A DNA stretch of 64,000 bases from a bacterium (GCA_965205865.1 CBDBHR010000010.1:1-64000), one strand, 5' to 3'; shown: positions 29,203-52,411, counted from the stretch's first letter. Notes: generated by a model from the sequence alone, not told the origin. Numbers and translations: made by a program.

Positions 29203-30315
29203 TCATGATTGTTGTCGTGCTTGATTTTTTTTGATGCGTTGAATGATGTGTCGCACTGCATCAATCGATTCCAAAGGAGAAAGAGGCCGTCGCTGTTTTT
29301 TGAGTGCAAGACTTGGAATTCCTTCTTTTTTCGGCAAGGCGGACGGGGAGTCGTTTTGCTGAATCAATTGTTTCAGTCGTTCATAAATGGAAATTGGATC
29401 ATTGGCAGATTCGGCCATCAGAACTGAGGAAGTGCGGACCTGTTCCGGATTCATTCCTCGTTGCGCGATGAATCCGACCTTTTGAATGACAAATTGGATT
29501 TCAGGAAAAATGTGATAAATGCTGTCCAGCAATTTGCGGGAATGCATGGGGGTTTTCAGTAGAGCGTGCACTGCTGGATTGGAAACATAAATCATCAGGG
29601 TGGCGCCATAATAATTGGAACGCCGAACAAAAGCCGGTATGCAATGGCCCGCAAATTCCGGGCTGAGAAGCGTTTCCCAAACAGAGGCAAGCGCGCCAAT
29701 CCAAATTTGATCTTGATGTTTTTGTCCCAAATCTCCAACTTGACATTGAATCCGGTCGATTTGGAAATTGGCGAGGAGATGATTGATTTGTTTTAAATAC
29801 GAGGGCATTTCAAATTGAATCGCTTGGATGAAAGCTCCATCGTATACTACCAGATGGAGGATTGTTTCTCTGAGAGTGAAGTTGGCAGGAGCGAGTAGTA
29901 TTTTTTTTTCTTCAGGGGTGACCTTTCGCTTCAAGCGCTGACAAAGGAATTTGAAAAAATGGCTTGGCGTAAAATACGCATTTTCATGATTTTTTAAAAA
30001 TTCATGGAAACTGGGAGAGAGAGCAGATTCTTCTTTCAGAGTCTCTAAATACTTTGAAGTGATTTTTAAATCCCAAATTGCCGAGATACGTTGCGGATAG
30101 GCATGACGTGCTAGAAATTCATCGCTTTGCTCTAACCAATATCTTCGCAGTTTGATCAAATACAGCAGATTTTTTTGACCAGCAGCCATAAAAATATCGA
30201 CGATCGTGCCATCAAGAGTTGCTAAAATATCGGTCTGACGGTGGTAGTGAATCTTTTTTAAAAATTCACCGATTGCTTTTTGTGCTATTTGATTGTTTTG
30301 GATGTGACGACTCAT
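29203..30315 (-). CDS. Protein with two DciA/DUF721-like domains, the first carrying a ~62-aa insertion
   Basis: Pattern W...A.H..P...L.(I/L).V occurs twice (YWLEQSDEFLARHAYP...LHLVVYD...IDRIQCQVG; VWETLLSPEFAGHCIP...LMIYVSN). Start uncertain. Confidence 0.6.
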   Translation of the reverse strand: MSRHIQNNQIAQKAIGEFLKKIHYHRQTDILATLDGTIVDIFMAAGQKNLLYLIKLRRYWLEQSDEFLARHAYPQRISAIWDLKITSKYLETLKEESALSPSFHEFLKNHENAYFTPSHFFKFLCQRLKRKVTPEEKKILLAPANFTLRETILHLVVYDGAFIQAIQFEMPSYLKQINHLLANFQIDRIQCQVGDLGQKHQDQIWIGALASVWETLLSPEFAGHCIPAFVRRSNYYGATLMIYVSNPAVHALLKTPMHSRKLLDSIYHIFPEIQFVIQKVGFIAQRGMNPEQVRTSSVLMAESANDPISIYERLKQLIQQNDSPSALPKKEGIPSLALKKQRRPLSPLESIDAVRHIIQRIKKNQARQQS

Positions 30316-30405
30316 CTGTAAACCAGGGTCAATCGGAATGCGCAACAATAGCCTTACCATATGTGAGATGATAATTTTCTCCAACTATTTTGAAAGTTTC
30401 AAGGG

Positions 30406-30957
30406 ATGAATGAAGAAGATTTAACTCCAGGACTTTTGGTAGCAATGCCTGCTCTCAAAGATTCCTATTTTGAAAAAACTGTAATTTTGCTTTGCAATTA
30501 TACCGAAGAAAACGCTTTTGGTTTGGTTATCAACAATCCGTCATCGATTCGCATCAAGGATATAATTGCCACCGATTTGAAATTCAAAGATGATCTGACA
30601 GCTCCTTTGATGTTGGGGGGGCCGGTTCAGCAAGAGTCTCTATGGGCCATCCACTCACACGAATTCAGCTGCGATACCACCTCTGAAGTATCTCCTGCAA
30701 TCAGCATCAGCGCAATTCATGAGGTTTTGAGTGCGATCGCCCGCAAAGAAGGACCGGAAAAATATCTCTTAGGATGCGGGTATGCCGGATGGGCGCCCGG
30801 ACAGTTGGATCGAGAAATTGAAGATGGCGCCTGGTGGTTGACCCCCTTAGAGACAAAATATGTCTTGGAAATGCCTTTTGATGGACGTTGGGATGAAATC
30901 TTGAAGCAAATTGGCATCGATCCTCTCTCGAGTTTTTTTCATTCCGGAGAACTCTAA
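30406..30957 (+). CDS. yqgE: YqgE/AlgH-family protein
   Basis: LLVAMP, FGLVIN, GGPV, GYAGWAPGQLDREI. Confidence 0.93.
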   Translation: MNEEDLTPGLLVAMPALKDSYFEKTVILLCNYTEENAFGLVINNPSSIRIKDIIATDLKFKDDLTAPLMLGGPVQQESLWAIHSHEFSCDTTSEVSPAISISAIHEVLSAIARKEGPEKYLLGCGYAGWAPGQLDREIEDGAWWLTPLETKYVLEMPFDGRWDEILKQIGIDPLSSFFHSGEL

Positions 30958-31091
30958 TATCGATGACCTTGCTTGACCCCATTATTGCAACCATGGAACG
31001 TGTCGTCGTTTCTTTGTAAGAAATACAATTTTGCAAGGCTTACAAAAAAAGGTTTCGATTAACTCTTACAATCCATCAACGAATAACAATT

Positions 31092-31682
31092 ATGCAGTGG
31101 AAATTTGTTGACCGGATCACAGAAACAGATGGCATCACTCACATCAAGGGGAAGAAACGGTTTCCGCTCAATGAAGTATGGCATGAGGATCATTTCCCAG
31201 GAAGCGCCATTGTTCCCGGAGTTTTGCAGATTGAAGTGGTCGCCAATTTGGCAGGAAAACTGATTTTGTTGAGAAATCTAAAAGAATCAACGGAGTGGGT
31301 CGCTCCAATCCTATTGAAAACCGGAGAATGTCGCTTCAAAGACCTCATTCGTCCTGGAGAATTGATCAACGTGGAAGTGAGCATTGAAAAATACAATCGT
31401 CGGCTTGTTTGCTCCACAGGAACACTTTATGTGGACAACAAAGAACGGGCAAACATCTCCGTCACCTCCGCACGCATCCCCGTGGAGACCATCGGGGACC
31501 CTACAATCCTCATTCCTTGGAAAATCCGGGAAATTTTGGAAGTCTATCCGGATATGAGCGAGGAAATGCGAAACCGGTTGGAGCAGGAATTAGCCCAGAT
31601 TGAAGACACATTGAATTTCCCTGCGAAAATCAGCTTGCTGAAGCAGGAGGTGCCCACCGCATTCGATGAAATTAAGAAATGA
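31092..31682 (+). CDS. FabZ-like 3-hydroxyacyl-ACP dehydratase (hotdog fold) with C-terminal extension
   Basis: FVDRI, DHFPG..IVPGVLQIE, RFKDLIRPG. Confidence 0.8.
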   Translation: MQWKFVDRITETDGITHIKGKKRFPLNEVWHEDHFPGSAIVPGVLQIEVVANLAGKLILLRNLKESTEWVAPILLKTGECRFKDLIRPGELINVEVSIEKYNRRLVCSTGTLYVDNKERANISVTSARIPVETIGDPTILIPWKIREILEVYPDMSEEMRNRLEQELAQIEDTLNFPAKISLLKQEVPTAFDEIKK

Positions 31683-32988
31683 TCTTTCCGTAAATCAAAG
31701 ATTCCTCAAAATCATAATTTTTCCGTTTCTGCTGCGGCAATTGACTGGGGTTTGTTTCTTTGAAGCCATTTGCCGTAAATATATGGGAACTCTTTGTGGT
31801 GAGGGCAAATATCAGGGTTTGCTTGTCAAGCGCCGCCTGCTCTTGCGCAGCAACAATCAATTGTTTGCCAATACCTCGATTGCGGTATTCTTGTTTGACG
31901 GCGAGACTGGCAATCTCCATGGATTTGTTTTCTTCATAGAAAATCAACTCGCAACACCCAATTAAGCTTTCATCGATGCAAAAAACTAAAAAATTCTCAA
32001 TATGCTGTTCGAGATAAGTAGAACTTTTATGAACCAAGACGAGTTCGCTGACCGGTTTTACCAGGATCTGTTGGATGTGATGGATGTCAGGGAGCTTGGC
32101 AAAACGTATGTGTTCATAAGCGCTGTTGGTGAGCATAATCCCGGTTCCTGTAGAAGTGAGGATTTCTCCCAATATCGCGCCATCGATAGTGCTGTCCAGC
32201 CAATGACAGCGTTCCACACCTCGTTCACACGCTTCAATGAGAGCTTGCAACTGCAAACGGGGTTCACATGTCAAAAAGGTTGCCTGCCGGAGCCATTGCC
32301 GCATGGCTTCGGGTTTTGTTTCTCGAAGCGCATAAATTTCCTCAAAAGGGAAATTATCCCGGTGTTCCAGAATGATTAACTTACGTGCCCGCAAACGCGC
32401 AGCCACTTCCAAGGCGATCTGATTGGCTTCCAAAATCAGCAAGCGTCCATTTTCTCCAATTGCGAATGGTGCGATGATTGGAAGATAATGATGAGCGAAA
32501 GCCTCTTGCAAAGATTTAACATGAATGTCCTGCACTTTTCCAGTGCAGTGCGATGCGGAATCTTGAGAAAATGAGACTTTTTCTGCCCGCACGAAATGCC
32601 CGGAATATGGGAAAATATCGCGTCCATAACGGCTCAGTTTCGTAATCAGCTTCCAGTTGGTGCTGGCAATGGCTTGCTGGACAATGGGTAGGGATTCCAA
32701 GGGAACTCTAATCCGCCCTTCTACAATTTTCTCGTTATGTCCGTGAATTTGAAGGATCTCCCCGATCTGAGCATTGGCACCGTGCACAATGATGATCTTG
32801 ATGCCTATGCGATACAACAGGATCATATCATCCATAATACCGGACAAATTCTTCTGCCGGAGTGTGTTTCCACTGATTTTGACGACGAAAGTTTCGTTAT
32901 GAAATTCTTCTAAGTAGGGCAGAGCCCCTCGCAACCCATGAATGAAGTCTCTGAATTGTGACGCATCGGAGTCGGATTTTGCAGACAT
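31672..32988 (-). CDS. argA: Amino-acid N-acetyltransferase (N-acetylglutamate synthase)
   Basis: Amino-acid-kinase-like domain (IIVHGA, ACERGVERCH) plus GNAT domain (EIASLAV...RNRGIG, FALTT). Confidence 0.9.
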   Translation of the reverse strand: MSAKSDSDASQFRDFIHGLRGALPYLEEFHNETFVVKISGNTLRQKNLSGIMDDMILLYRIGIKIIIVHGANAQIGEILQIHGHNEKIVEGRIRVPLESLPIVQQAIASTNWKLITKLSRYGRDIFPYSGHFVRAEKVSFSQDSASHCTGKVQDIHVKSLQEAFAHHYLPIIAPFAIGENGRLLILEANQIALEVAARLRARKLIILEHRDNFPFEEIYALRETKPEAMRQWLRQATFLTCEPRLQLQALIEACERGVERCHWLDSTIDGAILGEILTSTGTGIMLTNSAYEHIRFAKLPDIHHIQQILVKPVSELVLVHKSSTYLEQHIENFLVFCIDESLIGCCELIFYEENKSMEIASLAVKQEYRNRGIGKQLIVAAQEQAALDKQTLIFALTTKSSHIFTANGFKETNPSQLPQQKRKNYDFEESLIYGKIIS

Positions 32989-33402
32989 GATTCATTTCAA
33001 GGATTGATGTGAATGTAAGAGTATACAGATTTTTGCGTCATTTCCATGTCCTGATATCCCAAGTTTTCAAGGATTTGCTGTGGGTGGGGTGTTACAAAAT
33101 GACACCCTGCAACCAACTCGTGGAAAATGGCGACAGAGGGCGTCATTCTTCGAGCAACCCGACAATTCGTAAAGTGTTTTGCTGCTATTATAGCAAACAT
33201 CGTATCTCTTTTCGAGAAGTTACAAAGTTAGTCTTTTGTTTGAGCTGGGTTTCCGGAAAACTTTTTATCAGAATTGAAATAATCTCACAAACCATGTATT
33301 TTTTATATTATCGAGTCATTTCCTGTAGACGGACTGGCTTGCTGTTATGCCTTTTTTTCAAGAAACGTCGTATTCCCAATATTGTTGACTGAACATCCAT
33401 CT

Positions 33403-34263
33403 ATGTTATCAAAATTCACAACCTATAAAATTTCAAGAAAATCATTGCATAAATTCAAAAAGCAAGGATTCAGCGAAGAGAGTCTCAACACCCTGGCTGC
33501 GCTTGAAGAAAAATATTTTCCTTCCATGGAACAATTCCTACTCTATTTGGAAAAGCTGCCCAACAACGTGGAAATCCTGGAACGGAAAAACATGATCCTC
33601 AAACACACACGCAGCTATTTCCGTATGGATGGATGGATCACCCACAAATCAATTCGTGAATGGGTAGAAGCCTTGATATTTGCGGTAGTGGTGGCCATGA
33701 TTGTCCGCACTTTTCTCTTTGCTCCCTTTCGTATTCCATCCGGATCGATGATCCCTACCATTCAAATTGGGGATCAAATCTTTGCCACGATGTTTAGTTA
33801 TGGGATTCCGATTCCATTTACCGATATCAAATTACTGCGCCAACCGATCCAACGGGGAGACATTTTGATCTTCCCCTCCCCGCCGAACCCTTCCATTGAT
33901 TTTATCAAGAGAACGATTGCTCTGGAAGGAGAAGTGATTGAAATCCGCAATGACGAAGTCTACATCAATGATAAATTGTTACCGGAACCCTATGCTTTTT
34001 TCGACCCTGACAGTCGATCCGCCTCCCGCTTGCGGAATGTGAGCAACTTCGGGCCAATTACCGTGCCCAAAGGGCATATTCTGGCAATGGGAGACAACCG
34101 CTATAACAGTCATGATGGGCGTTTTTGGGGTTTTGTGAATATTAAGAAGGTCAAAGGAAAAGGTCAGCTGGTTTATTGGTCCAAGGACCACCGTAAAGGT
34201 CTGTTAGGTTTTTTCGATTTACAATCCTATCGTGTGAATCGTATTTTACATTTCTTGGAGTGA
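33403..34263 (+). CDS. lepB: Signal peptidase I with an N-terminal ~63-aa extra module
   Basis: [12 protein letters not shown] (catalytic Ser), DFIKR (catalytic Lys), [15 protein letters not shown]. Confidence 0.95.
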
Positions 34264-34312
34264 ACTCCTTTGCCAAAGGCCTCAATTCGGTTGGTTCCAC
34301 ATCGATGAAATT

Positions 34313-35182
34313 ATGAAAAATATTGCGCGCAATGATCCTTGTCCCTGCGGGAGCGGGAAAAAATATAAAAAATGTCATCTCAAATTTGACCGCAAGAACC
34401 AACAGTGGGGCAAAAGCAACCGGTCTGGGATTATCGTCAAAAACCCGGAACAGGTGGTGGGGATTCGTCAAAGTTGTCAGCTGACCAGCAAAATTCTGGA
34501 TTTGCTGGAAGAGCAGATCCACCCGGGTATGACAACGAATGATATCAATGAGTGGGTTCATAATTACACCATTACGCATGGAGCTTATCCTGCACCCTTG
34601 AATTATCGTGGGTTTCCTAAAAGTGTTTGCACGTCACTCAACGATGTCATTTGTCATGGCATTCCCGACACAACCGTCATCCGTGATGGGGATATTTTAA
34701 ATGTAGATGTGACCTGTATCCTCAACGGTTATTATGGCGATTCGAATCGCATGTTTTGCATTGGGGAGGTGTCGGATGAGGCCAGCGCGTTGATTCGTAT
34801 TTCCAAAGAATGCCTGGAGTTGGGCATCGAGGAGGTCAAGCCCTTCAACACGATAGGGGATATCGGACATGTCATTCAACAGCATGCGGAACAGCATGGT
34901 TTTTCAGTGGTACGGGATTTTTGCGGACATGGCGTTGGCATCGAATTTCATGAAGATCCTCAAGTTCCCCACTATGGTGATCCTAAAAGCGGTCCCGTGT
35001 TGGTACCCAATATGGTTTTCACAATCGAGCCGATGATCAATATAGGGCGCTACGAAAGCCGGATTTTGGCGGACCGATGGACTGCGGTTACCCTCGATGG
35101 TTCCCTCTCCGCCCAATGGGAGCACACAGTCCTTGTCACGCAATCCGGTGTGGAGGTTCTAACGGCATCCTCATCGAATTGA
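34313..35182 (+). CDS. map: Methionine aminopeptidase with an N-terminal SEC-C motif
   Basis: [48 protein letters not shown]. Confidence 0.96.
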
Positions 35183-35264
35183 GATTTTTCCATGCCCTTT
35201 GCTATTGGCAATTCTACTCTGCCGCTTAGACAAACTGCTACATCACCCTTGGTTAAAGCAATAA

Positions 35265-35675
35265 ATGAAACAGAAAATTGTAAGCTGCGTTCTCATTTTG
35301 ACCTTTTTATTAGTAGCATTCGTGCTTAACGTCGCAGAAAAATCTGCCAGTCTCATAACCATTTCGGCATTGGAATCGGCTGCATTGATTGAGAAGAACA
35401 AAAACAATCCCGATTTCATAATTTTGGATGTGCGCACTGCCGAAGAATACGACGCGGTCCGTCTTATTGATGCAGAGATGTTGGATTTCCATTCTGCAAC
35501 CTTTACCGACGCGTTGAAGGAGTTGGATAAGGAAAAAACCTATCTCATTTACTGCCGGAGCAGGGTCCGTAGTAAAAAAATTCTCAGACTGATGGAAGAA
35601 ATGGGGTTTGAAATGGGTTACCATATGTTGGGAGGAATTTTGGCATGGCAAGCAGAGAATTTTCCGACCATCTGA
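35265..35675 (+). CDS. Rhodanese-like domain protein
   Basis: ILDVRTAEEY, IYCRS..RS, LGGILAW. Confidence 0.85.
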   Translation: MKQKIVSCVLILTFLLVAFVLNVAEKSASLITISALESAALIEKNKNNPDFIILDVRTAEEYDAVRLIDAEMLDFHSATFTDALKELDKEKTYLIYCRSRVRSKKILRLMEEMGFEMGYHMLGGILAWQAENFPTI

Positions 35676-35713
35676 AAATTGACGAGAGCAGTTCTATTCT
35701 AAGACAAATGGAG

Positions 35714-36163
35714 CTAAGGTCGTTTGGAAGCAATTTTGATTTTGCGAATGATTGACTGATGCAAGACAAGCACGGGCGGTCCTTGCGGGCGTCCCCAAAT
35801 CCAGGTGGCCAGGATCAATCCACCAAAAATCGTGTAACCCATACTGAAGACCCAGGGTTCTGCCTGGTAGAAGACGGTTTTGTGCAGCCAATAGGCAACG
35901 AAACTCCCGGAATAGGAAATCTTATCTGCCATCCCGCGTAGCTCATGTTCCCAGATCGTCAAAGGGCAAATAATACCCATCCAACTCTGGATGACGACAA
36001 TGCCGATTGCCAGTAAATGCGCGAGCCTGAACCAGAAACTACGTACCCAACGCCATTGTCTCAGCAAGCCCATCACAATCAATATCAGTCCAAACACCAC
36101 AAATGCAATGAAGCTCGTGTGAAGAATCAAAACAAAATCAGCAAGCAAAGAGTATGGATTCAT
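35714..36163 (-). CDS. DUF2784-like membrane protein
   Basis: LADFVLILH, FRLAHL, CPLTIWE. Confidence 0.8.
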   Translation of the reverse strand: MNPYSLLADFVLILHTSFIAFVVFGLILIVMGLLRQWRWVRSFWFRLAHLLAIGIVVIQSWMGIICPLTIWEHELRGMADKISYSGSFVAYWLHKTVFYQAEPWVFSMGYTIFGGLILATWIWGRPQGPPVLVLHQSIIRKIKIASKRP

Positions 36164-36215
36164 CTTGATTGGTCACTGTTTGAAAAAAGAACACTTCCCC
36201 CACATTTTCTATGCT

Positions 36216-37364
36216 TCAGGGGACGATTTGGTAAATGTTTCCCATCAACCCCACCACATAGACTTCTCCAGCTTCATCTTCTCCGAAACTGGAAATATTG
36301 ATGTTTGTATTTATCAATAGACTCAGGTCCAGCAGGCGACCATTTATTTGGGTCAATCCCCAGATTTTGCCTGATCCAAAATCCCCGTAAAGGTAGTTGC
36401 CCTGCAAAGATGGGATCGCCATCCCACGGTAGACGAAACCGCCTGTGACCGAGTAGCCTTCGCTGTGGTCATATTCAACTAAGGGACGCTGCAACCCCCT
36501 CTGGGAGCAACCGAATGACGGTGCATAGCAATGATCGCCTTCCATGATATTCCATCCGTAGTTTTTCCCTTTTTCAATCAGATTGATCTCTTCATAACGA
36601 TTTTGTCCCACATCGCCCGCATAAAGTTCACCGGTCAAACGATCGAAGCTGAAACGCCAGGGATTTCGCAGCCCATAAGCCCAAATCTCAGGAAGGATAT
36701 TTTGAAGGCCCACGAAGGGATTATCTTTAGGGACGGCATAAGCGGTTTTACCGCTTTCACGGTTGATATCGATACGTAGAATGGCTCCATGCAGAGTTCT
36801 TAAATTCTGCCCATTGCCCAAAGGATCTCCGCCTGCGCCGCCATCTCCCATGCCAATGTACAAGTAGCCATCGGGACCGAAGGCAAGTTGACCTCCATTG
36901 TGATTGCTGTATGGCTGTTCAATCTCAAGAATGCGAACTTCACTGTCTGCCATCGCCTGGTTCGGATTTTGGGAAAGCGCACGAAATTTGGAAATGACGG
37001 TACGCCGGGGCAGTCCGACTGTATAATTGACAAAGAAAATGCCATTTTGCAAGTATTGTGGATGAAATGCCAGGGAAAGCAAGCCTTCCTCATTTCCCCA
37101 GCTGAGGACTCGTTTGCGGATATCCAAAAAAACATGGGAGACCGTCCGTCCTGTGGCGGGGTCTCGGTCAATGACCTGAATCCTCCCTTCCTGCTCCACC
37201 AAGAAGATCCGGCCGCTTCCATCCCAGGAGGCCGTTAGGTGAACAGGGCGATCTAACTCCACAGTTTGAAATACCTGCTTCAAACCCAGGGCCCATGGAC
37301 CAGGATAAAAGCTGCAAGAGATGGAGAACCCCACCAATATGATTCCCTGAACGATGATTTTCAT
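36216..37364 (-). CDS. PQQ-dependent sugar dehydrogenase (glucose/sorbosone family)
   Basis: NHNGGQLAFGPDGYLY, AYGLRNPWRFSFD, SFGED. Confidence 0.92.
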   Translation of the reverse strand: MKIIVQGIILVGFSISCSFYPGPWALGLKQVFQTVELDRPVHLTASWDGSGRIFLVEQEGRIQVIDRDPATGRTVSHVFLDIRKRVLSWGNEEGLLSLAFHPQYLQNGIFFVNYTVGLPRRTVISKFRALSQNPNQAMADSEVRILEIEQPYSNHNGGQLAFGPDGYLYIGMGDGGAGGDPLGNGQNLRTLHGAILRIDINRESGKTAYAVPKDNPFVGLQNILPEIWAYGLRNPWRFSFDRLTGELYAGDVGQNRYEEINLIEKGKNYGWNIMEGDHCYAPSFGCSQRGLQRPLVEYDHSEGYSVTGGFVYRGMAIPSLQGNYLYGDFGSGKIWGLTQINGRLLDLSLLINTNINISSFGEDEAGEVYVVGLMGNIYQIVP

Positions 37365-37664
37365 ACCACTTTCATTGCAAAGGTGACCAGGAATTTTCCT
37401 ATCATACCATTTCTCACTTCAAATACCATCAATTCCCAACCCTTTTCTCCATAAAAACAGCCTTGCCCACACAAAGCGGATTCTAATCTTCGCAATGTTT
37501 TTTCCCCTTAAGGCGAATCTATGGTGCCTTAACGAAAACCTCATCCTCTTCATTTTTTTCTGGAATCGACAAATCTTACACGATAATATCGATTGATCAC
37601 ATCATCACGGATCAAAAGTAAAAACCCGCGATAATCTCGTGAAGAAAAAGACAGAAAGTAAATA

Positions 37665-38039
37665 ATGCCACAAGCAGCAAAGGAGATTTGGGTTACAATA
37701 GGCAGCGCGGACGAAATCAATATCGACCAAATCAAGGCTGTTCAAGTTGGACCGGTACGAATCATTCTCGTACGAACAGAAACAGGTTATTTTGCCCTGG
37801 ACAGCCTCTGTCCTCACCAAGGAGTGCCTTTGAAAGACGGCACCGTCTGCAAGGGCGACAGAATTCGTTGTGTCTGGCATGGCTATTTGTTTGATCTGAA
37901 TACTGGTAAAGGACATGGCAATGAGTACGAAGTGGAGACCTTCCAAATTCGAGAAAGTTATGGCACCATTGAAGTATTGTTGCCAAAGCAAATGCGCAGG
38001 TGGGACTCTCTGTTAAGTGGTTGCAAAGCCCTTCTCTGA
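37665..38039 (+). CDS. Rieske 2Fe-2S ferredoxin
   Basis: CPH and CVWH ligand motifs, FDLNTG. Confidence 0.9.
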   Translation: MPQAAKEIWVTIGSADEINIDQIKAVQVGPVRIILVRTETGYFALDSLCPHQGVPLKDGTVCKGDRIRCVWHGYLFDLNTGKGHGNEYEVETFQIRESYGTIEVLLPKQMRRWDSLLSGCKALL

Positions 38040-38053
38040 ACGATATCGAGACT

Positions 38054-38653
38054 ATGAACTCGCAGAATCCGGACAGAACTCGCTGGAACAAAAAATATTC
38101 TCGGAAAGGGATGGAAAGCTGGGAATCTCGTCCTTCAGACTGGTTGCGAAGCCATCATTCTCTTTTGAATGCGCAAAGGCGAGGAGCAGCGTTGGATGTG
38201 GCCTGTGGCAATGGGCGCAATTCATTTTTTTTGGCTGCCATGGGCTTTGAAGTGGATGCTGCCGACATTTCGGATGTGGCAGTCGTTTGGTTGCAGCAGC
38301 AAGTTGCTCAAAAGGTTGTGTCCATCCAACCCATTCAGATGGATTTTGAAAACAATCTCCTTGCCAAGGAAAAATATCAAGTAATCCTTTGTTTCAATTA
38401 CCTGGAGCGTGGTCTTTTCCCTGTCCTGCAAGACGCATTGCAGGCTGGAGGACTTTTGTTTTTTGAGACTGCCTATCGTGACGACATCACCATCTTGGGT
38501 AGCAGCATGAATCCACGGTATGTGTTGGATTACAATGAATTGCTGCGGGAATTTTCGGATCTGCGTATTCTTGAATATCAAGAAAAAATCGTTTATGTTG
38601 CGGAGCTTACTAAAAAGAAAGCCTTGGCCAGTATAGTGGCTCGCAAAATTTAA
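38054..38653 (+). CDS. Class I SAM-dependent methyltransferase (TehB-like)
   Basis: [11 protein letters not shown] motif I, FNYLER. Confidence 0.85.
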
Positions 38654-38673
38654 TCGACTGCGAGGAGAGCGAA

Positions 38674-39405
38674 ATGCCATTCCCCCACCCATTGAGACGC
38701 GCCACAAGGCTTGGTTGGATTCTGATATTCGCTTTTACAGGCTTGTGGGGAAATCCATTATGGAGCCAGGAGTGGCAGTCTGCGCGTCAGGAGATGGTAC
38801 GGGTTCAACTCGAGAACCGGGGCATTCAGGATCCTGCTGTCCTACAAACCATGCGGGAAGTACCCCGACATTTATTTGTTCCGAAAGAACTCGAATTCGT
38901 GGCCTATTCAGACCGTCCTTTACCAATAGGTTCAGGACAGACGATCAGCCAACCCTATGTGGTGGCCTTGATGACAGAATTGCTCGATCTGCGCCCAGGG
39001 ATGAAAGTTTTGGAAATCGGCACGGGATCAGCGTATCAAGCAGCAGTCCTTGCGACCTTGAATATGGAAGTCTATTCAATTGAGATCATTCCGGAATTGG
39101 CCAGAGGAGCGATAGCTCGCTTACAAAGCCTGCAATTTCCGGTTTCCGTCAAAAATGCAGACGGTTATTACGGCTGGTCGGAGCATGCCCCTTTCGACCG
39201 TATCATCATCACCGCCGCCGCCAATCATGTACCCCGCCCCCTCCTCAACCAATTGAAACCGGGCGGAAAACTCGTGCTTCCCCTGGGACCGACCCTGTTT
39301 TATCAAACATTGACGATTGTCACTGTGGATGAAGACGGTCAAACCTCGGTTGAATATTCCATCGATGTCCGCTTTGTTCCCATGACTGGCAAAGTCCGGG
39401 AATGA
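38674..39405 (+). CDS. pcm: Protein-L-isoaspartate O-methyltransferase
   Basis: [36 protein letters not shown]. Confidence 0.93.
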
Positions 39406-39410
39406 GCCCC

Positions 39411-41753
39411 TCATCCATTCAGGCGAAATGCTGACAGCCAGGCAACTGTATAACAGAGAGTAGCTGCAAGGAACAGTGAGGAGAGTCCGGCGAATTGGGC
39501 CAGTAACAATGCTCCGATGGGACCAATCACTGAAGCGCAGCCATTGAGGCACCATGCCACGGCAATACGATTTTTCGTGATTTCCGAATCGGGATCCCGA
39601 GCTGAAATGGCAACCACCCCACGGGGGAAAGGAATGCCCATCAAAATCCCCAACCCTCCCACCGCTATTACAGCAACTGCCAGGCGTACGGGGAAATCAC
39701 TACCAGCCAAGACGGACAAAAATTCAGAAAATCCAAAAAAATACGCCACCAGGATTACAAGCAGGAGCCCTTGACCTTGGTTGAGCCGCCGCACAGGCAG
39801 ATAGCGACTGACGAAGGATCCAATTCCGGATGTCAGTAAGAGGGTACTCAGCACCAGAGCCAAGGAATAGACCGGTTCTCCGAGAAACAAAATCAGTTTC
39901 TCAAACAAAGCGATTTCCACTCCCATAAACCCCAAGCCAATCCAAAAGAAATAGGACATCTTCCAGCTAAACAACGATTTTGTTTGACGATGCGCCAGGA
40001 ATGGCAACAACAGCAATACCAGTACGATGAGGAGAACTTGTAGCAGCAGAAGAGGCAACAACAGTCCTCCCTCTACCAGACCTTCCCATTTGCGTCCAAG
40101 GATTTCGTAGGTGTCGCTCAATCGGTCCCATCGCAGGAAATGAAAAAAGAAGGGCTTGTCATCGCTCACCGGAGTCAGATCGAACAAACTTTGTTCATGA
40201 AATGCGCGAGCATCCTGTAGCAATTGCCGCACGGCGTCTGCGTAAATCGGTATTGCAAAACGGTTGATCCGGTTGGCGTCTTCCTTTTTCATGTCGGGGT
40301 AGTAAACTGGAGTGTATCCACGCTGCTCACAGAATTGCACGAACAGTTTTTTATCCCTGTCTGACCATTTCCGGGCGGATCCCACAATCATCAGGGTGGA
40401 GATGGTACGAAAAATTCCCAGTTGCCGGCTGGGTTGCCAGTTCAGTTCTTTCATGGCGGCAATCAAAGTGGCGATCCAACGGAGTTCTCCCCTTGGAGGA
40501 GGCAATAAATAGCGATGCACGCCAAACCACCCTTCCGCTGTCAAACGCTGAAGCAGAGTCATGTTACCTTCCACGGTTTCCAGGGAGCTTTCCTGCAAGG
40601 CGTGCATTCCTGTGGAACCCGTAGGCAGGGCCCCTTCCAAGGAAACCAAAATACGATCATAGTGTTCTTCCGTGCGGGAAAGCAGCGTCCGTGTTTTTTC
40701 AGCAACAATGGTTATATGAGATAGATTGTTTTGCTCGCTCAACCAGCGGGCAATCAATTGGTTTTCGGTTTGTACGACGATTTGCGGTACTTTGGCGTTG
40801 ACCGCAGACAGCACTTCCTGGCCGCCAATCACCTGGAGGATCAACACATTTCCGGGAACCGGCGGAAGCTTATAAATCAGCCAAGAAGGCAGGTTTTGGG
40901 CATAATCCAAATGATCCACCTCCCACGAGCTGAAGGCCGTCAGTCCGTCTCCGTCAATGGTGATGCCGATTTGCGGAGGCAAGGATTCCCGGTAATTGAG
41001 ACTCAATCCGGGAGCGGTGCGGACTAAGGGACTTTGCAGCCAATCCACTCGTGATGCCGCATCCCATGTCGTTTGCAAAAGGCGGCTATTGGATAATTTC
41101 AGTGCATGAGGGAGACTCTTATAGGGACTCATCTTCCACTCCGGCAAACCAACGAAATGCCAATATCCCAGTAATCCTCCTGCCAGGCAGACCAGAAGTG
41201 CCCGTTGGGACCATTTGGACATCAGGCAACCGGTTGCCAATCCGCCAATCAAAGCAGTGAAAGCCAGCCACTCCATTTCAAGCCAGTAAGGTGCAATGAG
41301 AAAAAAACAGGCACAGCCGGCGCCTGCTCCAATGAGATCGCAACCATACAAGGAAAAAGTCTTCTGGGGGTATCTTCGCAGCAATAGATTGATCGTCAAT
41401 CCGCTGAAGAAAAAAGGGACTGCCAACAGCAGGAAGAGCACATACAAATATCCCCACTGCCAGGCGGCAAGCGTGAGCAGCACCGGATCAAAAGGAACTT
41501 GCTGAAAGAGCGCAAACAAGGGAAGAATCGTGACTGCAAAGAAAAGGGACGGCCAGGCAGGGTGGGAAGGCCTCTTGAAGAGGAGCGAATAAGTTCCGGA
41601 AAACGCATATCCCAACAAGGCGCAGCTGATGATCAAGAACGCAAAGTGATACCAAAACCGGATGGCCAGCAGCCTCGACAAGCCGATTTCAAACATCAGG
41701 GCGGCAAATGTCTGAAAAAAAATGCCGACGCCAATGCGGAGGGGCATCTTCAT
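39411..41753 (-). CDS. Multi-pass membrane protein with a spermidine synthase-like central domain
   Basis: YHFAFLIISCALLG, LYGCDLIGAG, PVSDDKPFF, LGEPVYS, AWCLNGCASV. Confidence 0.75.
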   Translation of the reverse strand: MKMPLRIGVGIFFQTFAALMFEIGLSRLLAIRFWYHFAFLIISCALLGYAFSGTYSLLFKRPSHPAWPSLFFAVTILPLFALFQQVPFDPVLLTLAAWQWGYLYVLFLLLAVPFFFSGLTINLLLRRYPQKTFSLYGCDLIGAGAGCACFFLIAPYWLEMEWLAFTALIGGLATGCLMSKWSQRALLVCLAGGLLGYWHFVGLPEWKMSPYKSLPHALKLSNSRLLQTTWDAASRVDWLQSPLVRTAPGLSLNYRESLPPQIGITIDGDGLTAFSSWEVDHLDYAQNLPSWLIYKLPPVPGNVLILQVIGGQEVLSAVNAKVPQIVVQTENQLIARWLSEQNNLSHITIVAEKTRTLLSRTEEHYDRILVSLEGALPTGSTGMHALQESSLETVEGNMTLLQRLTAEGWFGVHRYLLPPPRGELRWIATLIAAMKELNWQPSRQLGIFRTISTLMIVGSARKWSDRDKKLFVQFCEQRGYTPVYYPDMKKEDANRINRFAIPIYADAVRQLLQDARAFHEQSLFDLTPVSDDKPFFFHFLRWDRLSDTYEILGRKWEGLVEGGLLLPLLLLQVLLIVLVLLLLPFLAHRQTKSLFSWKMSYFFWIGLGFMGVEIALFEKLILFLGEPVYSLALVLSTLLLTSGIGSFVSRYLPVRRLNQGQGLLLVILVAYFFGFSEFLSVLAGSDFPVRLAVAVIAVGGLGILMGIPFPRGVVAISARDPDSEITKNRIAVAWCLNGCASVIGPIGALLLAQFAGLSSLFLAATLCYTVAWLSAFRLNG

Positions 41754-42157
41754 TGTTCGCGTTATTGACAATCTATAGACTTCTCGAAAATTTTCTTATC
41801 AGGAAAATAGGAGTCCGCCCCTCATCGCCAGGACCGGGACTGTCCTTCCATTTAATTGTTTGCCGGGAGGCTACAGTTGCGTGATTGGGTTATTTTTGTT
41901 TTACTAAAACAGCATCAATTTATATAGTACCTAAATCCTGCAATTAGATGACAATCAAACATGGAAATGGTAATATACTCAAATAGTTAACACCAGAATC
42001 AACATTTTAAGAGTAAATCAAATCAAAACTATCAAAGAAGTATGGAATCGTTCCCACGTTTTATGTAAGATTTTGTCGGTGGTCGGCATGCCGATTCGAC
42101 CGCTACGCGGTGGCAAGGGACGCAAAACGACGGACGAGGAGTCAGAGGAGAAAAAAC

Positions 42158-43000
42158 ATGCGCGCAACCTATATTTCAACCGCAGATCTGGCCCCCCATC
42201 TCCAGGACCCGGATTGGGTCGTGATCGACTGTCGATTCGTACTCGATGACAAGGAACAGGGACGGCGGGACTACCACAAAGGACACATTCCTCAAGCGCT
42301 ATATGCGCATCTGGAAGAAGACCTGTCGGCTCCTGTGGTTCCACAAAAAACCGGACGGCACCCTTTACCGGATCCTTTTGATTTTTCACGAATTTGTTCA
42401 TACTGGGGAATTGATGGCAAAGTCCAGGTCGTGGTTTATGACGACGCGATCGGTGCCTTTGCTGCCCGCCTGTGGTGGATGCTACGTTGGCTGGGTCATC
42501 ATCAGGTTGCCGTATTGGATGGAGGATGGCAGCAATGGCAGAAAGAGAATCGCCCGGTTTCCGATGATGTTCCCAGTCGGACACCACGGTCTTTTTTGCC
42601 CCTGTTGCGCTCCTGCTTGCATTTGAATGCGAATCAAGTCCTGAAATTACTGGAGGATCCCGATTACAGGCTATTGGATGCCCGTGGAGCGGATCGCTAT
42701 CGTGGAGAAAATGAAACCATCGATCCGGTGGCAGGACACATTCCCCATGCCCTTAGCGCTCCTTATATGGAAAATGCAAGCCCCGACGGCAGGGTTTTGC
42801 TTCCGGCTGCCCTGCAAAAACGCTTTCTTGCCATGTTGGGTCACGTGAAGTCTGAGCAAACTGTTTGTTATTGTGGTTCCGGAGTGACGGCATGCCACAA
42901 TCTTTTGGCCATGGCACACGCAGGTTTGGGAGATGGAAAATTATATGCCGGTTCCTGGAGTGATTGGATCACGGATCCCAAGCGTCCCATTGCCTGTTAA
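42158..43000 (+). CDS. sseA: Sulfurtransferase (3-mercaptopyruvate/thiosulfate, tandem rhodanese)
   Basis: GHIP twice, GRHPLP, ARLWW, YCGSGVTAC, YAGSWSDW. Confidence 0.9.
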   Translation: MRATYISTADLAPHLQDPDWVVIDCRFVLDDKEQGRRDYHKGHIPQALYAHLEEDLSAPVVPQKTGRHPLPDPFDFSRICSYWGIDGKVQVVVYDDAIGAFAARLWWMLRWLGHHQVAVLDGGWQQWQKENRPVSDDVPSRTPRSFLPLLRSCLHLNANQVLKLLEDPDYRLLDARGADRYRGENETIDPVAGHIPHALSAPYMENASPDGRVLLPAALQKRFLAMLGHVKSEQTVCYCGSGVTACHNLLAMAHAGLGDGKLYAGSWSDWITDPKRPIAC

Positions 43001-43165
43001 AATCCGCAAAAATTGGACTTGTCTTTTTTTCATGCTAAACTACCGACATATTATGAATCGTGGTGTTGACGAAACACGGCACTTGGAGCAAATCGCCGGT
43101 TCACGGCAGTAATTCAACCATCACTGGAAAACACCAGCAGTAAGTCATTTAGAAAAGATAGATTC

Positions 43166-46100
43166 ATGTTACAGTCCCTTTTGACTAAAAGCACTCGTTT
43201 GTTTGGCAATGAAAATGAAAAAAACCTCAAGCGCTACAAAAAGATCGTAGCGCAGATCAATGCGCTCGAGCCGGAGATGCAAAAGCTGAGGGACGATGAA
43301 TTCCCTCTAAAAACAGCAGCATTCAAAGAGCAAATCTTTGCCAATTCATGCTTCACCCTCACTGAACGGAGCTTGTTCCGCATGGAATCGGAACTCTCAT
43401 CAAAGACGGTGTGGAAACAACTGAGAAGTTTGAAAGGCAAGGAATTCCAATCCCGGCAAGAACTGCTTGCTGAAATTGAAAAGCGGGTGATCGAGGAAGA
43501 AGCCGAAGAGATCCTCTATGCTGCCAGGCGCCAGATTCAGCAAGACGCCAATACCGTACTCGATGAAATCCTACCGGAAGCATTCGCACTGGTGCGGGAA
43601 GCCAGTGTTCGCACTCTCGGAGAACGTCATTACGATGTGCAGTTGATTGGTGGCATGGCACTCCATGAAGGCAATATTGCCGAAATGCAGACCGGGGAAG
43701 GAAAAACGCTGGCATCCACTTGTCCGGCCTATCTCAATTCCCTCACAGGCCAAGGGGTTCATATCGTCACTCCCAATGACTACCTAGCCAAACGGGACAG
43801 CGAATGGATGGGGCAGATCTACCATTTCCTGGGAATCATAGTGGGACTGATCCAGCATGATAATCATCCGACACAGCGTCAGAAAAGTTACCGGGCAGAC
43901 ATCACCTATGGTACCAACAACGAGTTCGGCTTCGATTATTTGCGAGACAACATGAAGATGGATCTGGCCGATTATGCGCAGCGTGATTTCCACTATGCCA
44001 TCATCGATGAAGTGGACAGCATCCTGATTGATGAATCCCGTACCCCCCTGATCATCAGTGGGGCCACTGACGACAACATCGAAAAATACCGAATCGTCAA
44101 CAAACTGATTTACGACCTACAGCGTGAAATTCAAAAAATTGAAGTGCCATTGCTCCAGGATCACGAAGCTTATGACATTGATCCCGAATGGGAACTCAAG
44201 GAAGACCGCGACATTGTCCGTGAGGGCGATTATACGCTGGATGAAAAATCCCGGCATGTGGCCTTGACCGATCGTGGAGCTGCCAAAATTGAAAAGCGTC
44301 TGGCCGCCTTTGAAAGCTACCAACTCACAGATCAAGAAATCCAACAGTTGGAATCGGAATTCAATGAAGAGATAGTGATCCGGGCATTGAAAAGTCTGGC
44401 TAATATTGAATTCAAACAGCAAGACGCATTATTGGATACCCTGTCCGCTAAAATCGACGATGTCAACGAGCAGATCTCATTCCAGCTACCCTTCAAATCA
44501 CGAATCCTCCAGTTGGCCCACAAAGGCATGCTTTTGCCAACTTATCGACTTTCTCAGGATAGCCTCGAGCACTTGGAAGCAAATGCGGAGTTGGAATCTG
44601 TTTTACCGGTGCTCACCAGTCTCAAGGATTTGGAATATGAAACCGAAGAAGCATTTTTTGAAGCCTTGCAAAGCACTTTGGGCGCCGAAAAAGCCTCTCA
44701 ATTCCGATCCACGATTTTCGCTGAAATACAAGTTTTGAAAAGTTTGTTCGACCGGGTGAACACGCCGGTTTTGCACCACGTCAATCAAGCGCTGAAGGCC
44801 CATTTGGTCTTCAAAAAAGATGTGGATTATGTCGTCCAGAACGGACAGGTGGTCATTGTCGACGATTTCACAGGTCGACTGATGCCCGGACGTCGCTACA
44901 GTGACGGGCTGCATCAAGCCCTGGAAGCCAAAGAAAAAGTCCGCGTTGAAATGGAAACCCAAACCCTGGCTTCCATCACCTTTCAAAACTACTTCCGGCT
45001 TTACCGGAAAATCGCCGGAATGACCGGGACGGCTGAAACTGAAAAGGAAGAATTCAAAAAAATTTACAACCTGGGTGTGGTGGTGATCCCCACCCATCAA
45101 CCCGTGATTCGCCAAGACAAACCAGATGTGATTTATAAAACGCAAACGTCCAAATTCAACGCCATCGTCAAGCAAGTACAGTCGCTTCATGAGCGGAGAC
45201 AACCGGTCTTGGTGGGAACAGTCTCCGTGGAAACATCCGAACTGATCAGTCATCGTCTACAACAAAAAAGCATCGAACACCGAGTGCTTAACGCAAAATA
45301 TCATGCTCAAGAAGCGGAGATTATAAAAAACGCAGGTCAATTAGGATCGGTAACGATCGCCACCAATATGGCGGGTCGAGGAACTGACATCAAACCGGCA
45401 GCGGAAGTCTTGGAACTTGGCGGAGTTTTCATTTTGGGAACGGAGCGGCACGACAGCCGCCGCATCGACAATCAGCTCCGGGGACGATCCGGACGACAGG
45501 GAGATCCGGGCGAATCCCAGTTCTTCCTTGCAATGGAAGACAATCTTTTACGCATTTTTGGGGGTGAAAAGCTGGCCAAATGGATGGATCGCTTCCAAAT
45601 CGAAGAAGACTTGCCCATTGAACATGTGTTTGTTTCACGGGCCATCGCCAATGCCCAGAAAAAAGTGGAATCGATGCATTTCAGCGCCCGTAAAAGTCTA
45701 CTCGAATACGACGATGTCATGGAAAGGCAACGAAATATTATTTATGACAGACGCCGGGCAATTTTAAGCGATGATATCCATCATTGCTTTTTGGATATGT
45801 GCGCAGAGACTATCGAAAATCTGATGGACCAATTCTGTAGTGACAAATTCCAGGATCAGTGGAAGCGAGATGAATTTACCCAAGAATATTTTCATATTTT
45901 CAACTCACACTTGGATGAGTCGTGGGAAGATCCTTCACTGCGTCGGGAGGAGATTGTCCATAGGCTTTTTGAGATCACTGAAGATTGTTACCAAATTAAA
46001 ATCGATCGCTTCAAGGAGGAATTTTTCAATAAATACAATGAATCAGAACTGTTCGAAGTAGCGGGGATCTACCTGCATATTATTCTTCATGAAAACGCCC

Positions 46101-46729
46101 GCTCCGGCAATGCGGCAAACTGGGAGTTCCCACATCCTCAAATGCCGCAGGTCCGGCAATTTTTTGAAAATTGGCTCAAGCGCTTCGAAAGCTATTGCCG
46201 TAACAAACAGATGAATTCCCGAGTGGAAGCCATTGCACCCTTCCTCAATGAAATTCCTGATGATTACCGGCAACAGTTTTTTGCAAGGTATATGCAGTTC
46301 AAGCAGGAAATTTTTGAAACCCTCGTACTGTTAGTACAACGTCAGAATCTCTTGCTCACCAATGACGAACGCTGGAAAAACCATTTGTTGGCCATGGATC
46401 ATCTCAGAGAGGAAGTGGGCTTGGCAGGCTATGCCCAGAAAAAGCCCATTGATGAATACCGTCGCAAAGCATTTGTCTTGTTCGAAAACCTTATTTCGGA
46501 TATTGCCCGCGAGTCGACCACTCAATTTTTCCATCGCAGTAAACTGCCTCATCCACGTTATTTGTTCTTCCATGTAGATCCTCGCCAGGCCTCCGAAGCC
46601 GTTTATAGCCATGGGAATGAAGCCACATTGGTCAATAAACCCAAGCCCGCTGACCGGAAAAAAGTCTACGTTTCCAATCGGGAACGCAAAAAACAGCGTG
46701 CCAGACGCAATAAAGCCCTTTCGGTTTGA
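43166..46729 (+). CDS. secA: Preprotein translocase ATPase SecA, enlarged by insertions
   Basis: EMQTGEGKT, DEVDSILIDESRTPLIISG, GLHQALEAKE, TIATNMAGRGTDI, RIDNQLRGRSGRQGDPG. Confidence 0.98.
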   Translation: MLQSLLTKSTRLFGNENEKNLKRYKKIVAQINALEPEMQKLRDDEFPLKTAAFKEQIFANSCFTLTERSLFRMESELSSKTVWKQLRSLKGKEFQSRQELLAEIEKRVIEEEAEEILYAARRQIQQDANTVLDEILPEAFALVREASVRTLGERHYDVQLIGGMALHEGNIAEMQTGEGKTLASTCPAYLNSLTGQGVHIVTPNDYLAKRDSEWMGQIYHFLGIIVGLIQHDNHPTQRQKSYRADITYGTNNEFGFDYLRDNMKMDLADYAQRDFHYAIIDEVDSILIDESRTPLIISGATDDNIEKYRIVNKLIYDLQREIQKIEVPLLQDHEAYDIDPEWELKEDRDIVREGDYTLDEKSRHVALTDRGAAKIEKRLAAFESYQLTDQEIQQLESEFNEEIVIRALKSLANIEFKQQDALLDTLSAKIDDVNEQISFQLPFKSRILQLAHKGMLLPTYRLSQDSLEHLEANAELESVLPVLTSLKDLEYETEEAFFEALQSTLGAEKASQFRSTIFAEIQVLKSLFDRVNTPVLHHVNQALKAHLVFKKDVDYVVQNGQVVIVDDFTGRLMPGRRYSDGLHQALEAKEKVRVEMETQTLASITFQNYFRLYRKIAGMTGTAETEKEEFKKIYNLGVVVIPTHQPVIRQDKPDVIYKTQTSKFNAIVKQVQSLHERRQPVLVGTVSVETSELISHRLQQKSIEHRVLNAKYHAQEAEIIKNAGQLGSVTIATNMAGRGTDIKPAAEVLELGGVFILGTERHDSRRIDNQLRGRSGRQGDPGESQFFLAMEDNLLRIFGGEKLAKWMDRFQIEEDLPIEHVFVSRAIANAQKKVESMHFSARKSLLEYDDVMERQRNIIYDRRRAILSDDIHHCFLDMCAETIENLMDQFCSDKFQDQWKRDEFTQEYFHIFNSHLDESWEDPSLRREEIVHRLFEITEDCYQIKIDRFKEEFFNKYNESELFEVAGIYLHIILHENARSGNAANWEFPHPQMPQVRQFFENWLKRFESYCRNKQMNSRVEAIAPFLNEIPDDYRQQFFARYMQFKQEIFETLVLLVQRQNLLLTNDERWKNHLLAMDHLREEVGLAGYAQKKPIDEYRRKAFVLFENLISDIARESTTQFFHRSKLPHPRYLFFHVDPRQASEAVYSHGNEATLVNKPKPADRKKVYVSNRERKKQRARRNKALSV

Positions 46730-51806: not shown

Positions 51807-52028
51807 TTAACCTGAGTTCGAGATAAGAATTTAATAAATTCAATATGTTATGGAATCTTCATATCTTAGAGAAACCTTGTCATTCCTGCGAAAGAAGGAA
51901 TCCGGAGGTATGCAGCCAGACTGAAATCCGGATCCCCGCTCCCCGCTTTTGCGGGGACAAGTTTCGCGAGGATGACATATGCACTAGGATATTCATATTA
52001 TTGAAGATTTATGTCGAACTCAGGTTAA
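51807..52028. mobile_element. MITE-like element with 20-bp terminal inverted repeats and an internal REP-like palindrome
   Basis: TTAACCTGAGTTCGAGATAA and TTATGTCGAACTCAGGTTAA (19/20 match); internal GTCATTCCTGCGAAAG...TTTCGCGAGGATGAC. Confidence 0.75.
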
Positions 52029-52411
52029 TTTATGCAATCGATGAGACGTCATTGACTGGTATTAAAACGCATGGAATGGATCTTTAGAATAAAAATAAAG
52101 GATGTCCACTTGGGTCTCGACTTTGAACATTTTATCCAACTTTTGGGTTTAATAAAATCAATGTCTTACGAATCTGTATTGGAATTAATACAGGTCGTAT
52201 CATCAAAAACGGAAAACAGTAACCTGTATTAATTTTTTACAGAATTTCAACCAATTGATATTATTGAATAATGAAAATTAAAAGAATAAATCGAATGTCC
52301 AAAGTCCAGCTTGGGTGATAATTGCTATAAAAAAGTGAAAGAAGGAATGAAACATTTCGAGACAAAACATGAGATATTGACAACTGGGAATTCGCAAAGG
52401 AAGGTTGAGAA

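Follow-up and report, generated by a model that had tools for sequence, protein, structure and literature searches.

A 62-residue module inserted in frame into SecA, signal peptidase I and a DciA-like protein of a SAR324 bacterium, the probable product of a MITE-like coding element

Selfish DNA that resides in frame inside genes is, to our knowledge, represented by essentially one textbook case, the Rickettsia palindromic elements (RPEs). RPEs are short repeats that are found in frame in many unrelated genes, housekeeping genes included, where their conserved peptide is tolerated (Ogata et al. 2000, as cited in the excerpt of PMC10969869 available to us). [quoted passage not shown] Here we analysed a stretch of 64,000 nucleotides from a bacterial genome assembly (GCA_965205865.1, CBDBHR010000010.1:1-64000; called the window in the following). 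In this stretch a protein module of 62 residues occurs five times: three times in SecA, once in signal peptidase I (LepB) and once in a DciA-like protein. We consider the module the probable product of a MITE-like coding element. It would then be a second system of selfish DNA in genes, arguably cleaner than the RPEs.

An earlier note on this DNA had named the RPEs as a precedent, and the comparison is apt in part. As with RPEs, the module lies in frame in unrelated genes, among them housekeeping genes, and consists of a conserved peptide. In contrast to RPEs, the underlying element is not a hairpin-forming palindrome. When the whole element was tested for a palindrome, its fold energy corresponded to a z value of -0.56, 57 of 200 shuffled sequences folded as well or better, and only the termini paired. 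Instead of a long palindrome the element has MITE-type inverted ends and 8-bp flanking repeats. It further differs from RPEs by encoding a domain of solved structure and by occurring in several phyla, with tandem arrays of up to 17 copies. With the ORF-bearing MITEs it shares the small size, the absence of a transposase gene, terminal inverted repeats, a likely target duplication and occasional translation within the host protein. It differs from them in three respects: all copies found are intragenic and in one open frame (our searches being biased that way), the peptide is a conserved, apparently autonomously folding domain that has long been under purifying selection, and no parent insertion sequence (IS) is known for it.

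To describe the family we searched a profile of the nine full copies from the genome of the window (see below) against 1.84 billion representative proteins. It matched 663 proteins at E <= 1e-3, 103 at E <= 1e-10 and 5 at E <= 1e-30, which defines an uncurated domain family of at least 663 representative proteins. Family details given here come from the 150 matches that were listed. These 150 proteins hold 395 copies (one copy in 49 proteins, two in 46 and up to 17 in the rest), and module pairs within the same protein reach 90% amino-acid identity. The consensus reads FxxTxxSLxxLxxExxPxxxLxxLxxLKx(9)FxxxLxxxIGxExxxxYKxxILxHA. Conserved positions are core hydrophobics together with T4, P17 and G47, and no polar residue is invariant. 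Position 1 is F or Y and position 62 is A or T in 99% of the copies. A word-based protein search with a wide profile returned 9 proteins only, and in the main text of open-access literature we found no description of the module family.

The evidence for mobility comes from a young subfamily. In ten representative proteins, which by construction of the set are <50% identical to one another overall, the modules are 78-88% identical, with the similarity extending from residue 1-2 to residue 62. After masking the modules, one related host pair only was left among these ten proteins. When a single young module was used for a word-based search, 127 candidates were obtained, of which 52 had E <= 1e-8, with modules of 56-92% identity; near-identical modules sit in at least 52 proteins that are otherwise unrelated. 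Their hosts are as diverse as FtsA, DnaK/MreB-like proteins, TonB receptors, MinD/ParA, ExbB/D, a YidC-like protein and TolB, and further include a tail sheath protein, a caspase, a subtilisin and cytochromes (cytochrome c).

The DNA anatomy was obtained from young copies in rpoB (L124), in a BrkB-family gene (L122) and in a HEAT-repeat gene (L125). Over exactly 186 nt the three copies share 83-87% identity, which is above their amino-acid identity of 71-79%. Their 60-nt flanks are 27-38% identical, which is the random level. The differences of the three pairs were evenly distributed among the codon positions, with 10/7/12, 8/7/10 and 12/10/9, and the ratio of nonsynonymous to synonymous substitution rates (dN/dS) was 0.40-0.60. 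Out of 15 positions of the terminal inverted repeats, 13, 13 and 11 were complementary in the three copies, compared to a control mean of 3.9; in L124 they read GGTAAGTTTCAAAAT / ATTTTGAAACATGCC. The 5' arm begins 7 nt ahead of the first module codon, and the two arms encode the N-terminal F-K-I and the C-terminal I-L-K of the module. Directly repeated flanks of 8 nt were found at 8/8 matching positions in L122, 7/8 in L124 and 4/8 in L125. The unit has a length of 193 nt and contains no transposase gene. In each of the young elements there is only a single open frame out of six, and it encodes the module of 62-64 residues. With the 8 nt of one flanking repeat added to the 193 nt, the total comes to 201 nt, equal to 67 codons.

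A duplicated tripeptide flanking the module served as protein-level proxy of a target duplication. Of 41 modules sharing at least 50% identity with the young type, 12 had it, compared to 3 of 243 control offsets; the corresponding counts in older modules were 5 of 63 and 6 of 374. The signal of a target duplication is thus statistically clear and, with three copies seen at the DNA level, suggestive. In RpoB the module forms a clean insertion of 66 columns when compared to all 8 usable orthologues; L180, the ninth sequence compared, yielded an ORF in the wrong frame and was left out. Two of the young copies, 83% identical in DNA, lie in one metagenome-assembled genome (G093), and the module was present in 0 of 40 relatives of this genome. 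With tblastn, the young module found no match in plasmid or phage collections. Scanning a collection of species genomes with a 19-nt core word yielded 29 stretches, of which only two, both already known copies, were real, and a scan of metagenome contigs gave one locus. Dispersed copies in genomes of the Desulfobacterales type, which hold up to 18 copies, have a DNA identity of only 68-72% over 80-123 nt, so that these genomes offer no young pairs.

For the family as a whole, the sharp-ended and near-identical modules in unrelated genes, the inverted repeats, the target-site-like duplications at two of three DNA copies, the tripeptide signal and the clean insertion into RpoB support one of the two readings given in the earlier note, namely that of a selfish coding element inserting into tolerant loops. 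We propose the following life cycle. A small non-autonomous DNA transposon of ~193 nt with terminal inverted repeats of ~15 nt would insert and duplicate 8 bp of its target. Since element and duplication add up to 67 codons, the reading frame of the host would be kept. The single open frame would encode a compact, self-folding domain of 62 residues, and where the element enters a surface loop or a terminus in this frame and orientation, the host protein would remain functional. Because the host still works, fixation would become possible even in essential genes. After fixation the DNA signals would be lost while purifying selection would keep the fold, and tandem duplication would multiply copies locally into arrays. 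We give a probability of roughly 0.7 to this reading, according to which a coding element akin to MITEs and RPEs gave rise to the module, owes its survival to the autonomous mini-domain that it encodes, and was later fixed and maintained by selection on the protein. Homology, fold and distribution of the module, age and constraint of the copies in the window and the DNA anatomy of the three young copies are established directly. That a DDE-type transposase moved the element is what we infer from these; the old copies would have arisen as the young ones did, and tolerance rather than benefit would explain their retention.

Tandem multiplication is seen in a genome of another genus (G007), which encodes a protein of 836 residues consisting mostly of 9-10 tandem modules (L091:3035-5542, C214). 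The DNA identity of alternate units within it reaches 89%, indicating a recent duplication of a two-unit block. Young copies with DNA signatures, old copies under protein-level selection and tandem arrays thus make the stages of the life cycle visible. The element would be a unit that resembles a transposon and encodes a true structural domain, one that is already contained in a map from cryo-electron microscopy (cryo-EM). Its host sites would form a natural catalogue of permissive insertion sites, and the module itself a portable, well-tolerated insert for protein engineering.

The copies in the window belong to the old part of the family. Relatives of the SecA protein assign the lineage to the SAR324 cluster, and sponge metatranscriptomes are among the sequencing runs that contain the stretch. 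The gene for SecA (43166-46729, plus strand; 1187 residues), recognised by its Pfam/NCBIfam host domains, carries three modules in its own orientation. Module 1 (43352-43525) lies in the first nucleotide-binding domain, between the equivalents of residues 52 and 56 of B. subtilis SecA. Modules 2 (44318-44518) and 3 (44543-44728; E 1.7e-8 with a leave-one-out hidden Markov model (HMM), 9.2e-14 with an external HMM, both described below) form a tandem pair in the preprotein cross-linking domain, between residues aligning to B. subtilis SecA 273 and 276. In the gene for LepB (33382-34263, plus strand; Peptidase_S26 at residues 91-266 of the listed ORF) the module (33424-33609, plus strand; leave-one-out E 3.8e-6, external HMM E 6.4e-10) is located in the cytoplasmic N-terminus before the membrane anchor. 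It has a 100% match in a database protein of 286 residues (P0157). The gene for the DciA-like protein (29203-30384, minus strand; 393 residues, DciA domain at residues 226-293) contains a diverged module at residues 106-167, i.e. upstream of the DciA domain (29884-30069, minus strand; leave-one-out E 4.9e-4).

Five peptides of ~60 residues in SecA, LepB and the DciA-like protein were what the earlier note had reported, and all five are present at the coordinates given there, with a module length of 62 residues. That the module was unrecognised holds for Pfam and NCBIfam, which gave no match to any of the five segments although the host domains of all three proteins were recognised; it does not hold for structures, as a solved Cas7-11 already contains the module. 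The segments had further been described as lacking from canonical homologues. Accordingly, 45 of 49 SecA sequences compared carry none of them, and the three modules are present in 4 of the 49 and additionally in two further genera. Compared to SAR324 SecAs without module, the inserts appear as clean gaps of 69 columns and of 138 columns, the latter for modules 2 and 3. SecA of the window holds two more insertions relative to the B. subtilis protein, at 44123-44209 (residues 320-348) and 46034-46288 (residues 957-1041), neither of which matches the module profile.

For the genome of the window (G000) we searched the six-frame ORFs of the whole genome (n = 44,104) with HMMs. The HMM of the five copies recovered extra copies outside the model, with E 2.6e-7 for an ABC exporter, E 4e-4 for an M16 peptidase and E 8e-4 for an LptA-like protein. 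Iteration added a membrane protein of the Na+/H+-antiporter type, and the search converged on 9 copies in 7 ORFs. Leave-one-out HMMs recovered each of these 9 copies with E-values of 1.8e-10 to 4.9e-4. The external HMM, built solely from the 395 copies in proteins of other organisms, recovered 8 of the 9 and in addition one partial copy each from an ArnT/PMT_2-like protein and LptD, which brings the genome to 9 full and 2 partial copies. The DciA-like copy was the weakest, with E 0.2 for the external HMM and E 0.008 when compared as a single sequence by hhalign. An alignment of 25 DciA-like orthologues, in contrast, matched the module profile over all 62 columns at residues 106-167 (hhalign probability 96.5%, E 8e-10), such that this copy is a diverged true copy. 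At the level of sequence the homology of all five segments in the window is thereby confirmed.

The copies of this genome are old. The DNA of each copy matches only itself in the genome (E <= 1e-3), and matches from copy to copy are limited to words of 8-15 nt. In a congener (G001), 8 of 8 copies tested occupy identical sites and are 61-91% identical, compared to 70-90% for the host proteins (87% for the LepB module). Between the two genomes dN/dS was 0.16 over 501 module codons, compared to 0.10 over 3420 host codons. Selection that acts on the amino-acid sequence in turn implies translation of the module. Inverted-repeat ends of the copies in the window have decayed to 3-8 of 15 complementary positions; the terminal residues are kept via synonymous codons. 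On the reading proposed here, the five copies in the window are old, immobile and translated. Both the missing nucleotide similarity between copies and the old, protein-level conservation that had been deduced from it were therefore correctly recognised for this genome.

Hosts are shared over larger distances as well. G007 gave 33 matches and has most hosts in common with the genome of the window: SecA with three copies, LepB, the LptA-like protein, LptD, PMT_2, the Na+/H+ antiporter and M16. Its host list includes DnaE and further proteins as well. The module in this DnaE-type DNA polymerase III alpha subunit lies between the finger and HHH_6 domains, in the congener (L089, C1:3836500-3841500) as in G007 (L102:1479-5222). 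The genome of the window holds only a 31%-identical DnaE paralogue without the module; the orthologue may be absent from this 92%-complete assembly. With secA (three times), rpoB, dnaE, ftsA and lepB the module sits in some of the most conserved genes known. Alignments and phylogenies based on marker genes can be distorted by inserts of this kind.

Whatever its origin, the module may in SAR324 have become a domesticated tag for interaction or scaffolding, e.g. by self-association. This is compatible with an origin from a coding element, and, rated separately, we hold it for possible though rather doubtful. Retention has been long: in the family of the window, 24 of 24 genomes have a DciA-like orthologue with the copy, LepB copies occur across the family, and the triple copies of SecA in four genera or lineages. 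The low dN/dS of 0.16 is in line with a function, as is the packing of three copies into one "tail" of Cas7-11. Hosts in G000 and G007 also fall into functional sets, namely SecA with LepB; the LptA-like protein, LptD, the ABC exporter and the ArnT-like protein; and DciA with DnaE. This grouping (Sec, Lpt, replication) is suggestive of an acquired function. Against a tag speaks that the conserved positions are of the buried type and that no conserved polar surface was seen. Furthermore, copies are found on both sides of the membrane, as read by eye from signal peptides and membrane segments, and in very diverse hosts, which makes a single ligand or partner unlikely. Purifying selection is expected regardless of a function, since a misfolded insert would damage an essential host.

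A bolder version combines both ideas. The transposon would carry its own "landing gear" in form of the self-folding domain, and copies fixed in SAR324 would have been exapted as self-associating adaptors that connect functionally linked machines in each compartment. Such sets may be SecA and signal peptidase at the cytoplasmic face, the LptA-like protein, LptD, the ABC exporter and the ArnT-like protein in the periplasm, and DciA with DnaE in the replisome. We regard this as speculative and improbable. If true, a mobile element would have rewired protein-protein networks by giving many partners one "velcro".

Among the explanations that compete with a MITE-like element, the one that survives best is an ordinary promiscuous domain, spread by duplication, recombination and gene fusion, with the young copies as an expanded multigene family or a product of gene conversion. 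The old copies without DNA signals fit to it, the only recent amplification that is directly visible is the tandem one of the G007 array (up to 89% DNA identity, dispersed copies providing none), and a transposase partner was found neither in G093 nor in G000. A promiscuous domain does, however, not account well for similarity that stops exactly at the module edges in otherwise unrelated hosts, for inverted-repeat ends and 8-bp flanking repeats in young copies, or for the tripeptide duplication at 12/41 compared to 3/243 positions. DNA identity above protein identity among the young copies and the constant insertion unit of ~67 codons in RpoB and SecA also argue against it. On balance we consider this explanation unlikely.

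A number of observations nevertheless weigh against the MITE-like element. Its DNA anatomy comes from three young copies, of which L125 lacks a convincing target duplication (4/8). Both contigs of G093 that carry young copies could be mis-binned, given that the 40 relatives are without module. The dN/dS of 0.4-0.6 in young copies means that some selection acts on the peptide already there. In 41 older copies with available DNA, flanking repeats were at background (mean 2.2-2.8 of 8 compared to 2.0-2.1). The end complementarity of these copies, 6.5-7.3 of 15 compared to 3.6-4.0, is explicable by the conserved terminal residues. As older copies thus provide no DNA signals, a transposon origin of the copies in the window is inferred from homology alone. 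The dS between G000 and G001 of ~0.9-1.0 is near saturation, and family details stem from 150 of the 663 matches. Intergenic, untranslated copies were not seen, in searches that were protein-based and hence biased against them. Finally, an end-motif search of G093 and G000 revealed no autonomous element with matching ends, and the single intact IS of G000 whose ends are similar, described in the following, duplicates 5 bp instead of 8 bp although its end matches the element at 13 of 15 positions.

The end motif itself was enriched in both genomes, with 30 occurrences compared to 11 in the control for G093, and 37 compared to 3 for G000. Three candidate end pairs of G093 turned out to be unrelated to one another. 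Those matches of G000 that were followed are ends of other dispersed repeats and of one IS of the ISAzo13 family (G000:C29:302256-303540; L243:457-1741). This IS is single-copy and apparently intact, encodes a transposase of 402 residues and has 25-nt inverted repeats and a 5-bp flanking direct repeat. In its ends, combined with an 8-bp duplication, the module element may resemble elements of the IS6, ISL3, IS256 or IS1595 type. Short dispersed repeats of G000 comprise families of ~58-61 nt and ~160 nt with dozens of copies each that are 90-100% identical; one such copy lies in the window at ~51969-52029.

The only relative of the module in the PDB is Cas7-11 of Desulfonema magnum (7ZOL/7ZOQ), which contains three tandem copies at residues 1073-1258. 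The sequence of 7ZOQ was matched in three stretches with E 6.3e-9 by the profile from the window's own genome and with E 1.3e-19 by the wider profile. AlphaFold models of the LepB copy and of the young rpoB copy had mean confidence scores (pLDDT) of 88.3 and 93.0, and both consist of a short beta-bridge and four to five helices. Their best fit was to 7zoq_B 1138-1199, with Z 7.3 and 7.5, respectively, and a root mean square deviation of 1.9 Å over 61/62 residues. This chain ranked top of 48,161 chains for both models, followed by chains with Z 5.3 and 5.2. For helical models a Z of 7.3-7.5 is modest by itself, and the case is made by Z plus the sequence match. An old and a young copy thus share a predicted fold and superpose on a solved repeat. 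Judged by these models the module is a self-folding protein domain. Foldseek with the module model against the PDB gave nothing at E <= 0.001, and in the ESM Atlas the best score was 0.85, without any family.

In D. magnum the corresponding region is insertion-1 of Cas7.4, described as a "tail" unique to Cas7-11 that is formed by coiled coils of unknown role (PMC9935389, in the part available to us). Insertion-1 is homologous to the module and its fold matches the models. The difference is one of interpretation: the same part of PMC9935389 treats the tail as specific to Cas7-11, with mention neither of a dispersed family to which it belongs nor of a mobile insertion. Cas7-11 of D. ishimotonii and of Scalindua showed no sequence match to the module profile. 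An insertion of the module would offer an origin for this unexplained insertion-1.

The retention of the module in purified Cas7-11 seen by cryo-EM also bears on the idea that the insert is removed after transcription or translation in the manner of an intron or intein, leaving canonical mature hosts. In addition, one contig from an RNA library spans module 1 of SecA with both flanks and another one spans modules 2 and 3, such that all three are crossed without a break, with DNA carry-over being possible. With F/Y at position 1 and A/T at position 62 in 99% of copies, nucleophiles of the intein type are absent. We judge removal to be very improbable. Two RNA libraries of one study do join position 43587 to 43898 within secA, thereby skipping 310 nt between two highly conserved motifs. 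No module coincides with this joint, the shorter anchor comprises only 30 nt, and it is probably a chimera with secA of other organisms.

A mere chance resemblance of amphipathic helices, to which the low pairwise identity of 16-26% among the copies in the window would lend itself, is hardly credible in view of significant E-values from leave-one-out and external HMMs, 663 database matches, a profile-profile E of 8e-10 and a predicted fold that agrees with a solved homologue.

The search for an already characterised domain family that covers the module led only to a weak and mostly sub-threshold likeness to DUF2795 (PF11387), itself an uncharacterised small domain. Module residues ~8-35 of 62, the central helix-turn-helix, align weakly to positions 20-50 of 54 of the DUF2795 profile. 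Only three module proteins pass the cut-off of 25 bits. For P0004 (30.4 bits) and for the array protein of G007 (30.1 bits) it is the summed score that does so, for P0139 (29.0 bits) a single stretch. The 9 copies of G000 gave no match to DUF2795 even at E <= 10, and in 41 related genomes none exceeded the cut-off. The conserved N-terminal strand and C-terminal helix of the module lie outside the DUF2795 model.

Among the genomes searched, the distribution of the module is patchy and extends over several bacterial phyla. It was present in 40 of 41 relatives of the window's genome and in 73 of 88 SAR324 genomes. Within the order of the window all genomes of the two families carry it (44/44 and 19/19), compared to 9 of 24 genomes from other SAR324 families. 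A Desulfobacterales-type order has it in 29 of 201 genomes, with 1-18 copies each, and a genome of Entotheonella has 5 copies; a deltaproteobacterial metagenome-assembled genome, Methylobacter and Poribacteria appear as source names of further carriers. Five genomes of Desulfobacterales and Thiotrichaceae, chosen via their SecA loci, contained no copy. In more distant SAR324 genomes the module is found inside mono- and dihaem cytochromes c, Pal/OmpA lipoproteins and other proteins. In one of these families (f7; L110-L113, L115) it directly follows the CxxCH haem motif of a cytochrome c of ~200 residues. A second module lies between both haem domains of an adjacent dihaem cytochrome of ~320 residues, and this gene pair is kept in at least 4 genomes.

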